Shown here piece by piece: positions 21,933 to 55,992 of a stretch of 64,000 nt of DNA. Location of the stretch: NCBI GenBank assembly GCA_035548655.1, contig DASZSN010000019.1, forward strand, positions 15,245-79,244, read 5' to 3'. Source of the DNA: Minisyncoccota bacterium (lineage in GTDB: Bacteria > Patescibacteriota > Minisyncoccia > Phycocordibacterales > UBA9973). A program made the translations under genes and the position numbers. Numbering within the stretch: position 1 is the stretch's first letter; each line of letters begins with the position of its first letter. The notes under the pieces were generated by a model. That model was not told the origin of the DNA and searched no databases. It saw nothing but the letters and a program-made list of their open reading frames with translations.

Positions 21933-22004
21933 GCACCTGTGGTGAAATGGATATCATAAACGACTTCGGATCGTTTGTTGTGGGTTCGAGTCCTGCCAGG
22001 TGCG
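21933..22004 (+). tRNA. tRNA-Arg (anticodon TCG)
   Basis: Manual fold: acceptor GCACCTG/CAGGTGC, D-stem GTGA/TCAT, anticodon stem AACGA/TCGTT with loop CTTCGGA, T-loop TTCGAGT. No encoded CCA. Confidence 0.6.
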
Positions 22005-22045
22005 CATTGGAACTTTTGTACTTAATCTGTATAATTGTTCCACTT

Positions 22046-22116
22046 GCGGTCATAGTTTAGTGGCAGAACGCCTCGTTGCCAACGAGAAGGCTGGATTTCG
22101 ATTATCCATGGCCGCA
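22046..22116 (+). tRNA. tRNA-Gly (anticodon GCC)
   Basis: Manual fold: acceptor GCGGTCA/TGGCCGC, anticodon loop TTGCCAA, T-arm TGGAT TTCGATT ATCCA. No encoded CCA. Confidence 0.7.
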
Positions 22117-22291
22117 CAGAAATGTCTTTTTTGGAAATCCTTTGTTTTCAATAGTTTATTTGGAAACTGTGGATAAACGTGTGTGTAAGTCGGATAAAGG
22201 ACATGACTTTTATGACTGTCTTATTAAAAACGTTATAAAATAAGGATTTTTAAAAGTCATCTTTATTTAGTTTTCACGTGAAACGTCTAGA

Positions 22292-22654
22292 ATGATACGG
22301 ATTTTTACATCAAAAAAACAAGTCCTTGGTCAGTCAGGCGAAAAAGAAGCAGTGCGATTTCTCAAAAAAGAAGGGTTTTCGATCATCGGGCGGAACATTG
22401 CCAACAAATTTGGTGAGATCGACATCGTCGCAAGAAAAAAAGGGGTTACGTACTTTTTTGAAGTAAAAACAGGAAAAGAGGGGAGTTCGATCAGCCCCGC
22501 AGAAAATCTCACAAAACAAAAACTCCGGAAGTTTTTTATTTCCGTTCAACATTATTGTCTGGTCCATGAAGTGAACAATTGCCGGATGCAAGGGATACTC
22601 ATTTTACAAAAGCCGGAAGGCACGTATACTGTCGAGACAATCGAATTATCATAA
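22292..22654 (+). CDS. YraN-family (UPF0102) endonuclease-like protein
   Basis: GEKEAVRFLKKEGFSIIGRN...GEIDIVARK...FFEVKT matches the YraN/UPF0102 pattern. The stop codon directly abuts tRNA-Pro. Confidence 0.65.
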   Translation: MIRIFTSKKQVLGQSGEKEAVRFLKKEGFSIIGRNIANKFGEIDIVARKKGVTYFFEVKTGKEGSSISPAENLTKQKLRKFFISVQHYCLVHEVNNCRMQGILILQKPEGTYTVETIELS

Positions 22655-22728
22655 CGGGCTGTAGTACACCGGTAGTATTCACGATTCGGGTTCGTGAGAA
22701 CTGGGTTCGATTCCCAGCAGCCCGACCA
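22655..22728 (+). tRNA. tRNA-Pro (anticodon CGG), with encoded CCA
   Basis: Acceptor CGGGCTG/CAGCCCG, anticodon loop TTCGGGT, T-arm CTGGG TTCGATT CCCAG, discriminator A plus CCA. Confidence 0.8.
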
Positions 22729-22770
22729 AAAAGACCCTTTTCTCAATCAACTTCTTTATCCTGTAAACAA

Positions 22771-22806
22771 AAGACGCTGACGATGTGTCAGCGTCTTTTG
22801 TCTTTG
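22771..22806. terminator. Bidirectional terminator between convergent tRNA-Pro(CGG) and tRNA-Gly(CCC)
   Basis: A perfect 10-bp stem, AAGACGCTGA/TCAGCGTCTT, followed by TTGTCTTTGTG. Confidence 0.6.
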
Positions 22807-22877
22807 TGCGGGATACGAGAATCGAACTCGTGCCTACTGCTTGGGAAGCAGTCATTCTGCCACTAAACTAATCCCGC
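22807..22877 (-). tRNA. tRNA-Gly (anticodon CCC)
   Basis: Minus-strand fold: acceptor GCGGGAT/ATCCCGC, anticodon loop TTCCCAA, T-arm ACGAG TTCGATT CTCGT. Confidence 0.75.
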
Positions 22878-22961
22878 TTGTGCTCATATCCTAACAGATG
22901 GACAGGCGACGCTCAATTGACTTTCTCCGATAAACGCGTAGTCTGTATGAAAAACAAGTAA

Positions 22962-23324
22962 ATGAAAAAAATTCTTTTGATCTCCATCGACGATGGGATT
23001 TCTAAACAAGGAGTATTTGATGAAATGGACATTGCGGGAATAGATACAAAAATGGTGAAACTTATTTTTGTAGATAATGATATAGAAAATGCAAAGAAGA
23101 AAATCCCCGTATTCATCGCAAAAGGCACCCCTGATCTAATCTGCATAAATGGTGCAATTCCAATCACGGATCTTGAGAAATTACTTCAAAAGATATCAGA
23201 GGTGAAAGAAAAAGACGGCCTTAATTTCCAACTGTATTCCTTGGGTGAACGTCCCGAGAAGAGAAATCTTCTCTTTAAGAACCATTTGCGAGGCTACCCA
23301 GATCTTGCTCTGGTCCAGAGATAG
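22962..23324 (+). CDS. Hypothetical protein (120 aa)
   Basis: An ORF with its own terminator. Confidence 0.35.
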   Translation: MKKILLISIDDGISKQGVFDEMDIAGIDTKMVKLIFVDNDIENAKKKIPVFIAKGTPDLICINGAIPITDLEKLLQKISEVKEKDGLNFQLYSLGERPEKRNLLFKNHLRGYPDLALVQR

Positions 23325-23347
23325 CCCTTTTCAAGAGGGCTTTTTTT
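23322..23347 (+). terminator. Rho-independent terminator (AGCCCT..AGGGCT + T7)
   Basis: Seen at the stop of gene 22962-23324. Confidence 0.65.
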
Positions 23348-23404
23348 ATTTTTCCTTTATAAAAAAAATCTTTTCTGCTACGATACCCAGTACTCCAACA
23401 AGAT

Positions 23405-23475
23405 CGGGCTGTAGTACAGCGGTAGTATGCGCCCATGGGGTGGGTGTGACCCGAGTTCGACTCTCGGCAGCCCGA
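23405..23475 (+). tRNA. tRNA-Pro (anticodon GGG)
   Basis: Acceptor CGGGCTG/CAGCCCG, identical to the Pro(CGG) acceptor; anticodon loop ATGGGGT; T-arm CCGAG TTCGACT CTCGG. Confidence 0.7.
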
Positions 23476-23492
23476 CATCAAAATAATATCTT

Positions 23493-23525
23493 CGGGCTGT
23501 GGTATAACGGCTAACGTGCGTGGTG
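23493..23525 (+). pseudogene. Degenerate 5' tRNA-Pro fragment (acceptor plus D-arm copy without a 3' half)
   Basis: CGGGCTGTGGTATAACGGCTAACGTGCGTGG repeats the acceptor and D-arm of the neighbouring tRNA-Pro genes, but no matching 3' half follows. Confidence 0.35.
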
Positions 23526-23526
23526 G

Positions 23527-23628
23527 GGTTGAATATAAAGTCGGGACGTGGTGTAACGGCTAACATACGTGTTTTGGGTACACGTGACTCCGGGTTCGAA
23601 TCCCGGCGTCCCGACTTTATATTCAACC
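23527..23628. repeat. Perfect 22-bp inverted repeat (GGTTGAATATAAAGTCGGGACG / CGTCCCGACTTTATATTCAACC) enclosing tRNA-Pro(TGG)
   Basis: Left arm 23527-23548, right arm 23607-23628. The inner 7 bp of each arm are the tRNA acceptor stem. Confidence 0.8.
23542..23614 (+). tRNA. tRNA-Pro (anticodon TGG)
   Basis: Acceptor CGGGACG/CGTCCCG, D-arm GTGT AACGGCTA ACAT, anticodon stem CGTGT/ACACG with loop TTTGGGT, T-arm CCGGG TTCGAAT CCCGG. Confidence 0.8.
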
Positions 23629-23658
23629 AGTAGCATGGATATGCTACTGCGACGCAAG

Positions 23659-23692
23659 GCGCGACTCCGGGTTCAAATCACAGAGACCGGCA
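23659..23692 (+). pseudogene. Degenerate 3' tRNA fragment (T-arm-like GACTCCGGGTTCAAATCACAG)
   Basis: Near-copy of the T-arm region of tRNA-Pro(TGG), without a pairing 3' stem or acceptor. Confidence 0.3.
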
Positions 23693-23743
23693 ATCTGCCT
23701 TTTCAAGCGCAGATTTTGATAAAATAACAACAGCTACAAAAAA

Positions 23744-23814
23744 GCGGGATTAGTTTATCGGTAAAATAACAGTTTTCCAAACTGTGGTGAAGGGTTCGAC
23801 TCCCTTATCCCGCA
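23744..23814 (+). tRNA. tRNA-Gly (anticodon TCC)
   Basis: Acceptor GCGGGAT/ATCCCGC, anticodon stem ACAGT/ACTGT with loop TTTCCAA, T-arm AAGGG TTCGACT CCCTT. Confidence 0.8.
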
Positions 23815-47121: not shown

Positions 47122-47190
47122 CTGGTCAGAAAGCTTAGAAAAAGTGGGTTTTCATTAGTACGCCGTATGACTTCTTGATATACTAGTGTT

Positions 47191-51108: not shown

Positions 51109-51635
51109 AAATAACCATGGATATCACTAATACACAACAGAACGATTTCGACGATTCGCTCATCAACGTCCCTGAGGAAGTACAGGACTTTATGTTCAGC
51201 GACGATTTTGATGTCATCTTTCTCGCGATACAACGTGCGTGCTCGCTTACCGACTCTGAACGAGAGTTCGTAAAAAGTCTTACCTATAGCTTACTCGTTG
51301 AGGATATCGATATGGATGAGTTGACGCAAAAACTGGTGGGAACAGGAATGAAAACGGAAACAGTCGCAAACGTCGTCGTCGCGATCAATGAAGAAATACT
51401 CACTCGGGTACAACATATTACCGAGTTTTATTCAGGAGATGAGGAGACAGACACAGTATCAGATGCACCAAGCCCCGCGGACGTCATCGAAACGATCAAA
51501 CGTCGTCTCACTCAGCCGCAAGCGATTGCGCCAACCGCGCGCAGGCTCGATATCAGCAAAACTCCCGAGCTTCCCGCGCCACCAAAACCGACGCCCCGAC
51601 AAGGTGACGATCCATATAGAGAAAAGCCTCTCTAG
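51105..51635 (+). CDS. Acidic cytoplasmic hypothetical protein (176 aa)
   Basis: ORF whose ATG overlaps the upstream stop (ATGA). Confidence 0.35.
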   Translation: MKITMDITNTQQNDFDDSLINVPEEVQDFMFSDDFDVIFLAIQRACSLTDSEREFVKSLTYSLLVEDIDMDELTQKLVGTGMKTETVANVVVAINEEILTRVQHITEFYSGDEETDTVSDAPSPADVIETIKRRLTQPQAIAPTARRLDISKTPELPAPPKPTPRQGDDPYREKPL

Positions 51636-51713
51636 TGGTGGATGCAACCACCACAAGTGAATGTAACACTCCCTATATCTGTCTAAAAGGCGAGGGTACG
51701 GTATACTTACGTT

Positions 51714-52124
51714 ATGCAGTTCAAGGTTCCGCAGTTTATTGATGTTGAGGATAAAGTAATCGGTCCGTTGACGTTCAAACAATTTGCATACCTCGCCGGA
51801 GGGGGAGGACTTGTGTATCTTGCATTCAGATTGCTTCCGACACTTGTCGCATTTCCGGTCGCGGCCGCATTTGCCGCACTCGCACTTGCACTCGCATTCT
51901 TTAAATACAACGAAAAACCCTTTTCGTATCTTCTGGAGTCCTTTGTTCGATTTCATCTCCGCTCCCGCCTCTACCTCTGGCACAAACAACCACACATCAA
52001 AGAGAAGGAGCCGGCGGAAAAGGTCGAGAAACGAAGCTTTTTTGATCGTTCGGCACTCACTGAAAGCAAACTCAAGACACTTTCATGGTCGCTTGATGTG
52101 ATTGATCCGAAGAGTAGTGAATAA
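51714..52124 (+). CDS. PrgI/VirB3-like small membrane protein of conjugative/T4SS systems
   Basis: FKVPQFIDVEDKVIGPLTFKQFAYLAGGG followed by two hydrophobic helices, resembling the PrgI family. Confidence 0.45.
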   Translation: MQFKVPQFIDVEDKVIGPLTFKQFAYLAGGGGLVYLAFRLLPTLVAFPVAAAFAALALALAFFKYNEKPFSYLLESFVRFHLRSRLYLWHKQPHIKEKEPAEKVEKRSFFDRSALTESKLKTLSWSLDVIDPKSSE

Positions 52125-52125
52125 T

Positions 52126-52764
52126 ATGGCAACGCTTGGTGCTCCGGCACAACAATTCGTCCCTGTCAAAGAAGTCCGCGATGGTATCATCGTGCTCAAA
52201 GACGGCACACTCTGCGCGGTGCTCCTCGTCTCGTCGATCAACCTCACCCTTAAAGCATATGATGAACAGCGAGCGGTGCTGTTGCAGTTTCAAGGATTTC
52301 TCAATACGCTTGATTTTCCAATTCAGATTGTGATCCAATCGCGCCGCTATGACATCCGACCCTATATTTTGACGCTTGAAAATCGCCTTAAAAGCATCAA
52401 CGAACAGCTATTGCAGATACAAACGAGAGAGTACATCGAATTCATCCAATCTTTCACCGATCAGGTGAACATTATGAAGAAGTCATTTTTTATTGTCATC
52501 CCCTATGTACCTGCGATCCTCAAACAAGAAAAAGGAGTGGGGAAACTTCTTTCATTTTTCAAAAAGCCTCCGAGCGCACAGGTCGCTGTGTCGGACTTTG
52601 AAGAAGAGCGTTCACAACTTGAAGAACGAATGAGTGTCGTTGAACAGGGACTTACCGGCCTCGGACTTCGGCTGGTGCAGTTAGGCACACAGGAGGCAAT
52701 CGAGCTTCTCTACAAGACGTTCAATCCCGGCGACACCGCTTCGGAAGCAAAACCGACGAAGTAA
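52126..52764 (+). CDS. VirB4/TraE-type ATPase, N-terminal fragment (212 aa)
   Basis: Length and position match the N-domain of Gram-positive VirB4 homologues. It is followed after a cassette by the ATPase portion. The ATG lies immediately after the PrgI-like stop. Confidence 0.5.
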   Translation: MATLGAPAQQFVPVKEVRDGIIVLKDGTLCAVLLVSSINLTLKAYDEQRAVLLQFQGFLNTLDFPIQIVIQSRRYDIRPYILTLENRLKSINEQLLQIQTREYIEFIQSFTDQVNIMKKSFFIVIPYVPAILKQEKGVGKLLSFFKKPPSAQVAVSDFEEERSQLEERMSVVEQGLTGLGLRLVQLGTQEAIELLYKTFNPGDTASEAKPTK

Positions 52765-53198
52765 AAAGTTCGTCAAGTTGTCAGGTTATCAAGTGGTGAA
52801 CACATGAGGCACTTTGAAGACATACAAGCATGGCAAAAAGCAAAAGCATTGACTGTTCTTATTTACGAAGATTTTTCCACCTGTAAGGATTTTTCGTTTA
52901 AAAATCAGATTGAACGAGCGAGTGTTTCAATCATGAACAACATTGCTGAGGGGTTTGAACGACAGACAAACAAAGAGTTTAGAAACTTTCTCTATATCGC
53001 GAAAGGATCCTGTGGGGAGGTGCGGTCAATGCTCTCTGTCGCGAAAGACCTTCACTACATCCATGAGAAAAAGTTTGAGGTTGTAACAAATCTATCTCTT
53101 GAAGTGATAAAAATGATTTCTGGATTGATCAAAAAGCTCTAACTTGACAAGCTTGATAACTTTATAAACTTTATAACTCGCGGTATACTTACCGCCGT
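52765..53198. mobile_element. Low-GC insertion cassette splitting the VirB4-like gene, bracketed by short inverted repeats
   Basis: GTCAAGTT (52772-52779) pairs with AACTTGAC (53141-53148). GTTATCAAG (52785-52793) pairs with CTTGATAAC (53152-53160). The cassette is visibly AT-richer than its flanks. Confidence 0.4.
52804..53142 (+). CDS. Four-helix-bundle protein (23S rRNA intervening-sequence protein / Avd-like family)
   Basis: 112 aa. FEDIQAWQKA...SIMNNIAEGFER...FLYIAKGSCGEVRS matches the conserved pattern of the IVS/four-helix-bundle family. Confidence 0.6.
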   Translation: MRHFEDIQAWQKAKALTVLIYEDFSTCKDFSFKNQIERASVSIMNNIAEGFERQTNKEFRNFLYIAKGSCGEVRSMLSVAKDLHYIHEKKFEVVTNLSLEVIKMISGLIKKL

Positions 53199-55013
53199 AT
53201 GGCACTTTTTTCTAAAAAGGAACGCGACGAGAAACAACATTCTCTCACTCCGATTCCCATGGAGGATGTCTACGAGTGGGCGACCATGGAGCTTGCGGAC
53301 AAAATCGCTCCGTCGGCAATCGAAATCACTCCTCGAAGCATGCGCATCGGAGACAAAATCGTCCGAAGCTTTTTCGTGATTGCTTACCCACGATTTCTCA
53401 CTGACAACTGGCTCACTCCAATCATCAACCTCGACAAAGTGTTCGATATCGCGATGTATATCAGCCCGATTGAAACCGCGGAGCTTCTGCGTCATTTCCA
53501 AAAAAAGATTGCTGAGGTCGAAAGCCAAATCATCACTCGTCAACAGCGCGGGCTCGTACGGGACCCTCGGCTTGATACCGCCTATCAAGATCTAGAGGGA
53601 TTGCGCGACAATCTCACTCAGGCACAAGAAAAAATGTTCGATGTCGGATTTTATATCACTATCTATGCCGACAATGAGAACGACTTGTTTCGAACAGAAA
53701 GTGAGCTTCGATCCTTGTTTGAATCAAAGATGATTTACATCAAACCGACACTTTTTCAAGAAGAGGATGGGTTCAAAACAGTCGTGCCGCTTGGGACCGA
53801 TCGCCTCAGTGTGACACAGAAGCTCAATTCGGAGCCGATTTCGAGTATGTTTCCATTCGTTTCGTTCGATCTCACCTCGGACACCGGCATCCTCTATGGC
53901 GTCAATCGACACAATTCATCGCTCATCATTTTTGACCGCTTCTCGCTCGAAAACTACAATTCCATCATTTTTGCAAAAGCGGGCGCGGGGAAAAGCTACG
54001 CTACCAAGCTCGAAATTATCCGCACCCTTATGTTCGATACCGAAGTACTCGTTATCGACCCGGAGCGTGAGTATGAGTACTTGGCGGAAGCGGTTGGGGG
54101 ACGATACTTTAACATCTCACTTTCTTCTGATCACCATATCAATCCATTCGATCTGCCGATACCGCGAGAAGATGAGGCGCCGGCGGATGTACTGCGAAGC
54201 AATGTCATCAACTTGGTCGGATTGTTCCGAATCATGCTCGGCGGACTCTCTCCTGAAGAAGATTCGCTCGTTGACCGGGCAATCACTGAGACGTACGCGC
54301 TCAAAGACATCAGCGCGGAGTCAGACTTTTCAAAGGTCGAGCCGCCGCTTCTTTCAGATTTTGAAATGGTGCTCCAGGGAATGGAGGGAACTGAGTCGCT
54401 TCTCCAGCGCCTTACCAAGTTCACTCACGGCTCGTGGGCAAACTTCATCAACCAACCAACAAACGTCGATATCAACAAAAAATTCGTTGTGTTCTCGGTA
54501 CGTGATATGGAAGACGATCTCAAACCGGCGGCAATGTATATCGTGACGCATTTTATCTGGAACGCGATTCGCAAAGAACTCAAAAAGCGTCTCCTTGTCG
54601 TGGATGAAGCGTGGTGGATGATGAAAAGCGACGATACTGCCTCGTTCCTTTATTCGATCGCCAAGCGCGGCCGCAAATACTATCTGGGCCTTGCGACCAT
54701 CACTCAAGACGTTGGGGACTTCATGAAGAGCCCGTACGGAGTGCCGATTGTCACGAACTCCTCCATTCAACTGCTCCTCAAACAATCTCCCGCTACCATC
54801 GACATCCTAAAACAGACATTTAACCTCACTGATGAGGAGAAGTATTTGTTGCTTGAGTCCGGTGTTGGGGAGGGGATTTTCTTTGCCGGGCTCAAACATG
54901 TGGCGATCAAGATCATTGCCTCGTATACCGAAGATCAGATCATCACATCCGACCCGTCACAAATCATCTCGATCCGGCAGGCACAAAAGGAATTTCGAGA
55001 GCAACACGCATAG
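53199..55013 (+). CDS. VirB4/TraC/PrgJ-type conjugative ATPase, C-terminal major portion (604 aa)
   Basis: Walker A FAKAGAGKSY, VLVIDPEREY, Walker B LLVVDEAWWMM and the C-terminal YYLGLATITQDVGDF, typical of VirB4-family ATPases. Confidence 0.8.
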   Translation: MALFSKKERDEKQHSLTPIPMEDVYEWATMELADKIAPSAIEITPRSMRIGDKIVRSFFVIAYPRFLTDNWLTPIINLDKVFDIAMYISPIETAELLRHFQKKIAEVESQIITRQQRGLVRDPRLDTAYQDLEGLRDNLTQAQEKMFDVGFYITIYADNENDLFRTESELRSLFESKMIYIKPTLFQEEDGFKTVVPLGTDRLSVTQKLNSEPISSMFPFVSFDLTSDTGILYGVNRHNSSLIIFDRFSLENYNSIIFAKAGAGKSYATKLEIIRTLMFDTEVLVIDPEREYEYLAEAVGGRYFNISLSSDHHINPFDLPIPREDEAPADVLRSNVINLVGLFRIMLGGLSPEEDSLVDRAITETYALKDISAESDFSKVEPPLLSDFEMVLQGMEGTESLLQRLTKFTHGSWANFINQPTNVDINKKFVVFSVRDMEDDLKPAAMYIVTHFIWNAIRKELKKRLLVVDEAWWMMKSDDTASFLYSIAKRGRKYYLGLATITQDVGDFMKSPYGVPIVTNSSIQLLLKQSPATIDILKQTFNLTDEEKYLLLESGVGEGIFFAGLKHVAIKIIASYTEDQIITSDPSQIISIRQAQKEFREQHA

Positions 55014-55038: not shown

Positions 55039-55992
55039 ATGTATATGGTGCGCCTTTTTATACTCTTCGGTTTGATTTTTTCCTCTGCTTTAGTCGCCAA
55101 CGCGCAATTTCAACAACAGCAGTCGGTTGATCTCTCCATCAACATAATCCCCACCGATCCGGCTCCTCTGCAAACGGTGTCGCTTGAAGCGGAAAGCTTT
55201 GCCGTCAATCTCGATCAGGCGAATCTCTCCTGGACCTATGGGGGAAAAACGATTGCAAACGGCGTCGGACAAAAGAGGGTTTCCATTACGGCCCCCGCGG
55301 CGGGAAATGTCGCGACAGTTACTGTCACCGTCTCTGGCCTCGGACTTACCCCACTGTCCGCAAGCGTCACTTTGAATCCGGGCAGTATCGATGTGTTGTG
55401 GGAAGGGGCGGACGCATATACACCCCCGTTTTATAAAGGGAGAGCGCTTCCTGCGCCAAACGGAGTGATTCGCGCGGTCGCCATTCCTTCGACTGCGGCA
55501 CCGAGCCAGGTCAGTTATAACTGGACGAACAATGACTCCGCGATGGCGAACATCTCAGGCGTCGGTCGATCGAGTGTGCTTATATCGAATGATTTGTTTG
55601 ATAGGAGTGAAAACATCTCAGTCACCGTTGCCGGAGGGCTTTTTCAGGGAAACGGAAAGGTGAGTGTCACTCCACAAACACCAACGATCGTCGGGTATCA
55701 AAAAAGTGAAGGGTTTATTGATTATGCGAACGGTTCCACTGGCAACGTTGGGATCGCCGACGGAGGAGCGATCATCCATTTTGAACCGTTCTTTTTCTCA
55801 ACGCCGCGCGACCTCTCCGGACTCTCGTTTGAAATGAAAAATGGGGATACGGATATTTTCAATGTTCCTAAAAACGAGCTTCGTATATCGCGCCCAAGTG
55901 ATGACGGAACAAGCAACATTTCTGTCGGCGTATCGACGAACGTCTACACCCTACAGAATATAACAAAAGACTTCACCTTTACGTTCCAATGA
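55039..55992 (+). CDS. Secreted hypothetical protein (317 aa)
   Basis: Signal peptide MYMVRLFILFGLIFSSALVANA. The start is taken at the internal ATG of the track ORF. Confidence 0.4.
   Translation: MYMVRLFILFGLIFSSALVANAQFQQQQSVDLSINIIPTDPAPLQTVSLEAESFAVNLDQANLSWTYGGKTIANGVGQKRVSITAPAAGNVATVTVTVSGLGLTPLSASVTLNPGSIDVLWEGADAYTPPFYKGRALPAPNGVIRAVAIPSTAAPSQVSYNWTNNDSAMANISGVGRSSVLISNDLFDRSENISVTVAGGLFQGNGKVSVTPQTPTIVGYQKSEGFIDYANGSTGNVGIADGGAIIHFEPFFFSTPRDLSGLSFEMKNGDTDIFNVPKNELRISRPSDDGTSNISVGVSTNVYTLQNITKDFTFTFQ

Follow-up and report, generated by a model that had tools for sequence, protein, structure and literature searches.

A 64,000-nucleotide stretch of a Minisyncoccota bacterium genome (GenBank assembly GCA_035548655.1, contig DASZSN010000019.1, positions 15,245 to 79,244 of the forward strand; hereafter the window, to whose 64 kb coordinates refer unless a locus is named) carries the intact core of a Patescibacteria type IV secretion system (T4SS), in which the genes for PrgI/VirB3, TrsD and VirB4 follow one another in that order. 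Between trsD and virB4 lies a 408-bp cassette whose inverted arms enclose a gene for a four-helix-bundle protein (4HB; PF05635/TIGR02436) (Table 1). The three co-directional open reading frames (ORFs) of 212, 112 and 604 codons are found where a preliminary description of the locus had placed them, and its account of the insert as a discrete unit, with inverted-repeat borders and a 4HB gene of the intervening-sequence (IVS) family, is confirmed. Its further proposal, that the cassette had bisected a VirB4 gene, is not.

Table 1. Coordinates of the cassette, the flanking T4SS genes and the start signals in the window.
Feature	Position	Strand	Basis or remark
Whole cassette, 408 nt: 5' arm, 4HB ORF, 3' arm	52765..53172	+	edges from TrsD stop and last paired base
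5' arm, four degenerate 8-10-nt units AAAGTTCGTC / AAGTTGTC / AGGTTATC / AAGTGGTG	52765..52799	+	variants of family unit AAGTTATAA
4HB protein, 112 aa	52804..53142	+	PF05635, TIGR02436; PDB 2GSC (XCC0516) 6e-10
3' arm, CTTGAC AAGCTTGATAAC TTTATAAAC TTTATAACT	53138..53172	+	canonical unit ACTTTATAA twice
PrgI / VirB3-like T4SS membrane protein, 136 aa	51714..52124	+	PF12666 PrgI 1.3e-11; same position in related loci
TrsD-like protein, 212 aa from ATG (220 aa from TTG at 52102)	52126..52764	+	NCBIfam VirB4 N-terminal and TrsD/TraD matches; PF26593
VirB4 ATPase, 604 aa, full-length form for the clade	53199..55013	+	CD1110-family VirB4 7.1e-111; PF19044 6e-23
TATACT box, 6 nt upstream of PrgI start	51702..51707	+	hexamer listing in window
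Native virB4 leader, 6-bp hairpin GCGGTA-TACT-TACCGC containing TATACT (53184-53189)	53180..53195	+	shared with empty relatives

The TrsD/VirB4 gene pair and the cassette between them

According to the bisection proposal, one ancestral VirB4 gene for about 820 aa would have been cut in two by the cassette with both halves left expressible, and the flanking ORFs are indeed collinear with single-chain VirB4 models, with the insert exactly between them. In profile alignments, as the preliminary description had anticipated for the joined translation, the 212-aa ORF covers positions 2-116 of the 752-position CD1110 VirB4 model and 105-233 of VirB4_plasma, and the 604-aa ORF continues over positions 183-733 and 289-893, respectively. 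This collinearity, however, reflects a remote homology, already known, between TrsD and the N-terminus of VirB4. The upstream ORF, which also gives a weak match to the NCBIfam TrsD/TraD model, is TrsD, a core component of the Patescibacteria T4SS already published as a standalone protein: according to a 2025 study, no other T4SS component is as abundant in Patescibacteria, and the protein is remotely homologous to the VirB4 N-terminus, usually adjoins VirB4 and is essential in one cultivated Saccharibacterium (PMC12102498).

Comparison with related genomes, in which an uninterrupted VirB4 had been expected, shows separate trsD and virB4 genes instead. The genome scan (one genome per species; roughly 600 loci reported) covered 80 loci from Paceibacteria, Nomurabacteria and related metagenome-assembled genomes, and in 80 genomes the 604-aa VirB4 has full-length counterparts of 71-88% identity. 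Two separate, adjacent genes are present in all 82 related Patescibacteria loci in which both could be placed; the spacer between them measures 1-153 nt and holds no 4HB gene in 79, and only in the remaining three (L031, L069 and L078) does it extend to 442-497 nt, each time with a PF05635 ORF inside. The nearest relatives found, L224 and L223, whose VirB4 and TrsD are 89% and 81-82% identical to those of the window, both have empty spacers (31 and 50 nt, respectively), and the TATACT leader of virB4 is likewise present at empty sites. Furthermore, a homologue search with the 212-aa protein returned 6946 proteins, the best 120 of which are all standalone, 207-219 aa long and assigned to the TraC-like domain PF26593 (precomputed). 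The split-gene claim therefore fails, since orthologous loci have the two-gene arrangement without any low-GC insert, one of the observations set beforehand to refute it. These empty loci leave a bisected VirB4 with practically no probability: the two-gene TrsD/VirB4 state is ancestral, and the secretion ATPase is intact. A sole exception to the gene order was seen among the 80 loci, in L013 (5246-5896), where the TrsD gene and the neighbouring upstream ORF are inverted relative to virB4.

The same order of PrgI/VirB3, TrsD and VirB4, with a separate and small TrsD, characterizes pGO1-type MPF-FATA systems (TrsD and TrsE/VirB4) as well as the Patescibacteria T4SS (PMC12102498); the T4SS genes of the window are no different from these, and the 4HB cassette in the spacer is the sole extra. 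The VirB4 result thus amounts to a false alarm removed, the two-gene form being the already published norm for Patescibacteria.

The cassette starts directly after the TrsD stop codon, in agreement with the earlier statement that the N-terminal ORF ends at the left border, and stops before the TATACT hairpin of the host. The two pairs of exact inverted repeats reported for its borders are present at the positions given (GTCAAGTT at 52772 with AACTTGAC at 53141, and GTTATCAAG at 52785 with CTTGATAAC at 53152); they go beyond chance and are parts of an imperfect 29-bp stem between 52765-52799 and 53138-53172, with 7 G-C, 18 A-U and 4 G-U pairs. The arm duplex, computed with longer flanks, reaches -43.6 kcal/mol, as compared with -22.5 ± 3.9 kcal/mol for shuffled arms and -38.1 kcal/mol for the best of 1000 shuffles. 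Owing to register shifts between repeated units, the two exact pairs stand in the order A B ... A' B' instead of being nested, whereas the best arm duplex is nested. The 9-mer ACTTTATAA has only two copies in the 64-kb window, both in the 3' arm, and the 5' arm consists of the inverse unit in degenerate form. Moreover, GTTATCAAG and CTTGATAAC depart from the canonical GTTATAAAG and CTTTATAAC on both arms in a complementary manner, which is what selection for pairing predicts.

As described before, the insert is AT-richer than its flanks: GC content is 0.382 in the 434-bp spacer, 0.477 in the N-terminal and 0.489 in the C-terminal ORF, and 0.465 in the whole window. The suggested search for further copies found none in the 64-kb window by tblastn and blastn (relatives do occur in other genomes), and Rfam models at gathering thresholds returned 7 tRNAs only for the window, with no rRNA and no match on the arms. 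The inverted arms would suit an element with terminal inverted repeats, such as a miniature inverted-repeat transposable element (MITE); no target-site duplication was seen by eye at the window junctions or against the empty site of L224, in an inspection that involved no dedicated search, and the junctions of old insertions may have decayed. The empty spacer of L224 (4140-4170) begins with ACTTTAC-TAAAAGT, a tiny palindrome of one 3'-type and one 5'-type half-unit that could be a target, a footprint or chance.

The 112-aa protein encoded between the arms matches PF05635 (3.6e-35; 120.8 bits at a cut-off of 33.8) over profile positions 1-106 of 106 and TIGR02436 (2.3e-33; 114.7 bits at a cut-off of 24), as had been predicted for it. 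Its nearest solved relatives by sequence are XCC0516 (PDB 2GSC, 6e-10) and, at 5e-6, PDB 2RLD. XCC0516 has a four-helix-bundle fold and assembles into a pentamer. The earlier label "Avd-like", which refers to the accessory protein of diversity-generating retroelements (DGRs), stands at the level of the fold family and does not extend to Avd itself: the Avd models remain below their cut-offs (bAvd PF22296, 18.7 against 40 bits, 2.6e-3; NF033474, 18.6 against 80 bits, 1.8e-3), and, unlike in a DGR, no reverse transcriptase family is represented among the 18 neighbouring ORFs between 39.8 and 63.5 kb that were scanned for gene families, a scan that included no search for template or variable repeats. 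Neither the 4HB protein nor TrsD matches a PADLOC defence model. The conserved PF05635 motif GxxRxxxSxxxNxxE (PMC3936711) is recognizable in the window protein as NQIERASVSIMNNIAEGFER, with R-x3-S-x3-N-x2-E-G present and the leading G replaced by Q.

Related cassettes and ORF-less arrays in other spacers

We assembled a panel of 26 cassettes, the one in the window and those around 25 other 4HB genes, and the pairing and GC tests each covered 22 cassettes. All 25 have the layout of the window cassette, each subfamily with its own unit. Within the 80 genome loci, a hidden Markov model scan located 15 PF05635 genes, which belong to 14 loci, share the strand of the operon and are spread over several slots of the T4SS operon: most lie between gene B and PrgI, others between PrgI and TrsD or between TrsD and VirB4, and one upstream of gene A. 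All but one (14/15) lie upstream of the virB4 start at a distance of no more than about 2.2 kb; the ~6 kb downstream contain none. The closest relatives of the window protein, ~70% identical, occupy other slots of the T4SS operon in related genomes. The cassettes are not confined to this operon: in another conserved run of genes, rhodanese-pheS-pheT, two of them (L088 4001-4345 and L218 3001-3348) sit between pheS and pheT in one case and between the rhodanese gene and pheS in the other, a 4HB gene of the window subfamily also lies between frr and rseP, and a contig labelled Bacteroidales holds a cassette with the window's unit and 68% protein identity. Published gene orders add gmk|4HB|nadD in Flavobacterium columnare, listed in a table (PMC5524665), and cmr3|4HB|cmr2 in Pleurocapsa, from a study that reports 4HB genes inside CRISPR-cas loci (PMC3936711).

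Read by eye on the cassette flanks, the subfamily units are AAGTTATAA, CTAGGCA, AATTACGAA, GAATATAGAAT, AGCTTCT, AAGAATTA, AAAAGTAAAA and CTACTAAC, each mirrored on both flanks, common to the members of one protein subfamily and different between subfamilies. The two arms of a cassette match each other specifically: over the 22 cassettes, the own-arm duplex averages -32.7 kcal/mol, as opposed to -20.4 ± 1.65 kcal/mol with permuted partners (0/20000 permutations), although four single cassettes pair with their own arm no better than in cross pairs. Similarly, protein identity correlates with the 6-mer similarity of the arms (Mantel r = 0.72, 0/5000 permutations), and all 26 cassettes are co-directional with both neighbours. 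The cassette is thus a discrete unit whose arms and ORF co-evolve, with a sporadic distribution across genomes and slots and an orientation that is always that of its neighbours. Viral contigs contained no 4HB relative and just 2 exact array matches, so that a phage vector is not indicated. The TrsD|VirB4 slot also collects other hairpin elements, as seen in the 121-nt spacer of L038 (5856-5976), whose long inverted-repeat ends tcccgttagaagccacgatcacaa ... ttgatcgtgatctgcttctaaacggg are unrelated to the unit arrays.

The arms also occur on their own, as ORF-less mini-hairpins in which the two arms are joined by a short loop. Such derivatives lie between TrsD and VirB4 in L008, L083, L084 and L048, and in L005 with the unit of another subfamily; further ones are found between VirB4 and gene D in L084 and between a CYTH gene and the next gene in the Bacteroidales contig, where one-sided arrays stand in other spacers too, and L083 has a one-sided 3'-type array between PrgI and TrsD. 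When their folds were compared with those of shuffled sequences, four of six minis had z-scores between -2.9 and -4.8, with L008 (-0.6) and L048 (-1.6) not distinct. A metagenome scan with a 20-nt stretch of the unit array as query gave matches in at least 120 contigs (L092-L211). Among the 122 matches listed for these arrays of AACTTTATAA, one directly follows a subfamily-A 4HB gene, while mini-hairpins account for 17 and one-sided arrays for the majority; in 46 of the listed matches an ORF starts within 60 nt after the array and on its strand, mostly at 2-20 nt, and in a few examples, picked out by eye, the array stands beside a start codon on the opposite strand. One-sided arrays may represent a remnant, a promoter or leader feature or an independent repeat element. 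In the Bacteroidales-labelled contig with a cassette and minis (L213, 13334-14011), a 5'-type array is followed, 180 nt downstream, by an IS200/RAYT-type Y1_Tnp (PF01797) gene; its sister contig L212 (13274-13717) has no array of at least 3 units after the corresponding gene, and the candidate link to a Y1 transposase, inconsistent between the two, was dropped.

Judged by their divergence, the cassettes are old and their protein is functional: silent differences amount to 0.62-1.0 per site across the window's subfamily, near or at saturation, while amino-acid-changing differences remain near 0.2 per site and dN/dS, where estimable, near 0.1. The 4HB protein is accordingly under purifying selection. 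Identities within the subfamily form a star-shaped pattern of 0.55-0.78, irrespective of host relatedness. In terms of composition, the ORF has a lower GC content than the flanks in 22/22 cassettes (mean -7.4 points, p = 4.8e-7). Because ORF GC follows that of the host, AT-richness is a property of the cassette and no sign of recent arrival, and we rejected low GC as evidence of a recent foreign origin.

Gain or loss on a short timescale is best supported by the three sister genomes with 89% identical VirB4: the window has a subfamily-A cassette between TrsD and VirB4, L223 has one of another subfamily, with a different arm unit and a protein 30% identical to the window's, between PrgI and TrsD, and L224 has none. 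These comparative data fit the initial idea of a mobile or selfish cassette, one that does no damage to either neighbour.

Known relatives of the cassette and competing interpretations

The closest known relatives of the cassette are the ORF-bearing intervening sequences of 23S rRNA genes, as found in Coxiella and Leptospira. That of Coxiella burnetii is 428 nt long and forms a stem that RNase III cuts, with an S23p (PF05635) ORF in the loop, tandem heptamers before the ORF and a GC content of 36% in a genome of 42.5%; its ORF is reported to be decaying and probably untranslated (PMC4990558). PF05635 ORFs have likewise been described in rRNA insertions of Candidate Phyla Radiation (CPR) bacteria (PMC11270868). 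The cassette shares with these intervening sequences a similar size (408 versus 428 nt), a PF05635/S23p protein in the loop, termini that form a stem, short tandem repeats just before the ORF, a GC content under the host's, a sporadic distribution, read there as horizontal transfer, and flanking host RNA parts that remain functional (PMC4990558; PMC11270868). Unlike them, it lies between protein-coding genes and not in a 23S helix, it has an intact ORF under purifying selection rather than a decaying one, its arms are unit arrays, and ORF-less minis of it stand in operon spacers; cleavage by RNase III, moreover, is for the cassette an assumption made by analogy.

We consider it probable that the window holds an intact T4SS core with a stem-loop cassette between trsD and virB4, and that this cassette is one of a large family wedged co-directionally into operon spacers, with the architecture of the ORF-bearing 23S rRNA intervening sequences. 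In such a scheme, transcripts that start at the PrgI promoter would read through into the cassette, its arms would pair in the transcript, and RNase III might cut the stem as it does in rRNA intervening sequences; processing would then release the 4HB mRNA and leave trsD and virB4 unaffected. The cassettes could have spread with the help of an activity supplied in trans, or by recombination between arm arrays that other spacers already contained.

Several observations weigh against this interpretation. When the arms are aligned at the DNA level, the sense-strand mismatches comprise 22 G:U and 24 A:C, and the lack of a G:U excess means that they do not point specifically to selection on the sense RNA and are equally compatible with a role at the DNA level. 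The fold of the whole insert differs from that of shuffled sequences by a z-score of only -1.8, and a tblastn search with an E. coli RNase III query found no homologue in the 64-kb window, which is uninformative on the genome beyond it. The same unit forms arrays far more often without a 4HB gene than with one, many of them just upstream of start codons, and the arms may thus have a function independent of the cassette. The low GC, which tracks host GC across the 22 cassettes, may reflect protein composition rather than foreign origin. Finally, among 5.8 billion proteins the nearest 4HB other than the protein itself shows 71% identity; with no close copy and with saturated silent sites, movement is ancient or infrequent, and none of the copies records a transposition in progress.

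The same mismatch counts speak for an element that acts at the DNA level, with the unit arrays as protein-binding or hairpin sites that the 4HB protein, or a transposase or recombinase acting in trans, would recognize, and with 4HB copies as the autonomous and ORF-less arrays as the non-autonomous partners, as in RAYT/REPIN or transposon/MITE pairs (RAYT, tyrosine transposase associated with repetitive extragenic palindromes, REPs). Subfamily-specific arm units that co-vary with the protein, ORF-less minis of the same unit beside full cassettes in L083, L084 and L090, the single full cassette among the 122 metagenome matches listed and the Y1_Tnp gene of the Bacteroidales contig would all suit such an element. 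We nevertheless regard it as a possible but rather doubtful explanation: no catalytic activity is known for the 4HB fold, the window cassette neither contains a transposase nor has one beside it, the 18 neighbouring ORFs give no match to transposase, reverse transcriptase or integrase families, and the junctions, as far as could be judged by eye, lack a target-site duplication. The strict co-orientation of the cassettes, furthermore, is not predicted by a purely DNA-level transposon, and the Y1_Tnp link is weak given the lack of an array of at least 3 units in L212. Far less probable still is that the 4HB gene belongs to the T4SS operon as a normal accessory or regulatory gene, passed on by vertical descent, that does not move and has the repeats as its own operator or expression signals. 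The clustering of 14 of the 15 genes upstream of virB4 and the strong purifying selection on the protein would agree with it; yet the gene is present in only 14 of the 80 loci, at four positions and in at least 7 unrelated subfamilies, proteins of the same subfamily recur in pheST, frr|rseP and Bacteroidales contexts, and sisters with 89% identical VirB4 differ in its presence, slot and subfamily.

In comparison with other palindromic elements, the cassettes resemble REP/REPIN-RAYT systems and MITEs in their intergenic palindromic repeats, in a coding copy flanked by inverted units and in ORF-less copies that outnumber it, and differ from them in that the flanked gene encodes a 4HB helical bundle instead of a Y1/HUH or DDE transposase and in being strictly co-transcriptional. 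The early mRNA of phage T7 has intercistronic RNase III processing sites. Like these, a long stem between cistrons could separate messages harmlessly, with the differences that the stem of the cassette encloses a whole gene and that the unit is apparently transferable between operons.

The preliminary description knew of no precedent for an element of such structure. In the full-text literature searched, whose coverage is incomplete and therefore no proof of novelty, there is indeed no description of 4HB genes as hairpin-flanked cassettes outside rRNA genes, or of their behaviour there; the 23S rRNA intervening sequences are closely similar. It is tempting, if speculative, to view PF05635 genes in general as the ORF-bearing form of widespread palindromic intergenic elements, each subfamily linked to a 7-11-nt unit of its own that the protein perhaps binds directly, with ORF-less arrays and mini-hairpins as non-autonomous forms and the 23S rRNA intervening sequence as only one of many landing sites in transcribed spacers (T4SS, pheST, frr|rseP, gmk|nadD, cmr3|cmr2). 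The very large PF05635 family has no known function and has mostly drawn notice through rRNA intervening sequences and as the family whose fold Avd shares; were this view true, the "IVS protein" family would gain a role and a testable mechanism. If the pattern holds in a full census, it would also offer one explanation for 4HB genes in CRISPR-cas loci (PMC3936711), between gmk and nadD (PMC5524665) and in CPR rRNA insertions (PMC11270868), and it would define a small element that enters operons without breaking them.

Start signals and neighbouring genes

The TATACT element noted in the preliminary description before the ATG of the C-terminal ORF is present, ending 9 nt upstream of it, but it is no by-product of an insertion: the hexamer stands 7-12 nt before the virB4 ATG in the empty relatives L001-L004, L006, L007, L009-L011, L223 and L224 as well, so that virB4 has its own start signal with or without the cassette. 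TATACT is also found 6-9 nt before the start in 9 of the 54 largest non-overlapping ORFs of the window, including gene A and virB4, in addition to PrgI, and resembles a -10 box positioned for leaders that are very short or missing, possibly a general start signal of the lineage. The boxes of the window lie at 47179, 51702, 53184, 39759, 34277, 31208 and 14439 on the + strand and at 1792, 3561 and 13947 on the - strand. TrsD, which starts 1 nt after the PrgI stop, has none, and the box at 51702 is the likely -10-type start signal of a PrgI-TrsD unit, at the tail of which the cassette is located. A scan of 51600-53400 for sigma-70 promoters and terminators yielded 3 promoter-like sites against 2.1 expected and is uninformative; the sole + strand sigma-70 site near virB4 pairs TTTATA inside the 3' arm with the TATACT of the host.

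On its downstream side, the T4SS cluster directly adjoins yidC (- strand), dnaA and dnaN (59312-63484), with dnaA/dnaN 6-8 kb downstream, and this yidC-dnaA-dnaN stretch lies at the presumed replication origin, an arrangement that agrees with the frequent location of the T4SS near the origin in Patescibacteria (PMC12102498). The 677-aa protein encoded downstream of virB4 (55989-58022) gives a weak, sub-cut-off match to the T4SS pilin family PF18895 over residues 414-480 and may be a VirB2-like component fused to a large extracellular part. Farther away, seven tRNA genes, six on the + and one on the - strand, are grouped within 2 kb (21933-23814).

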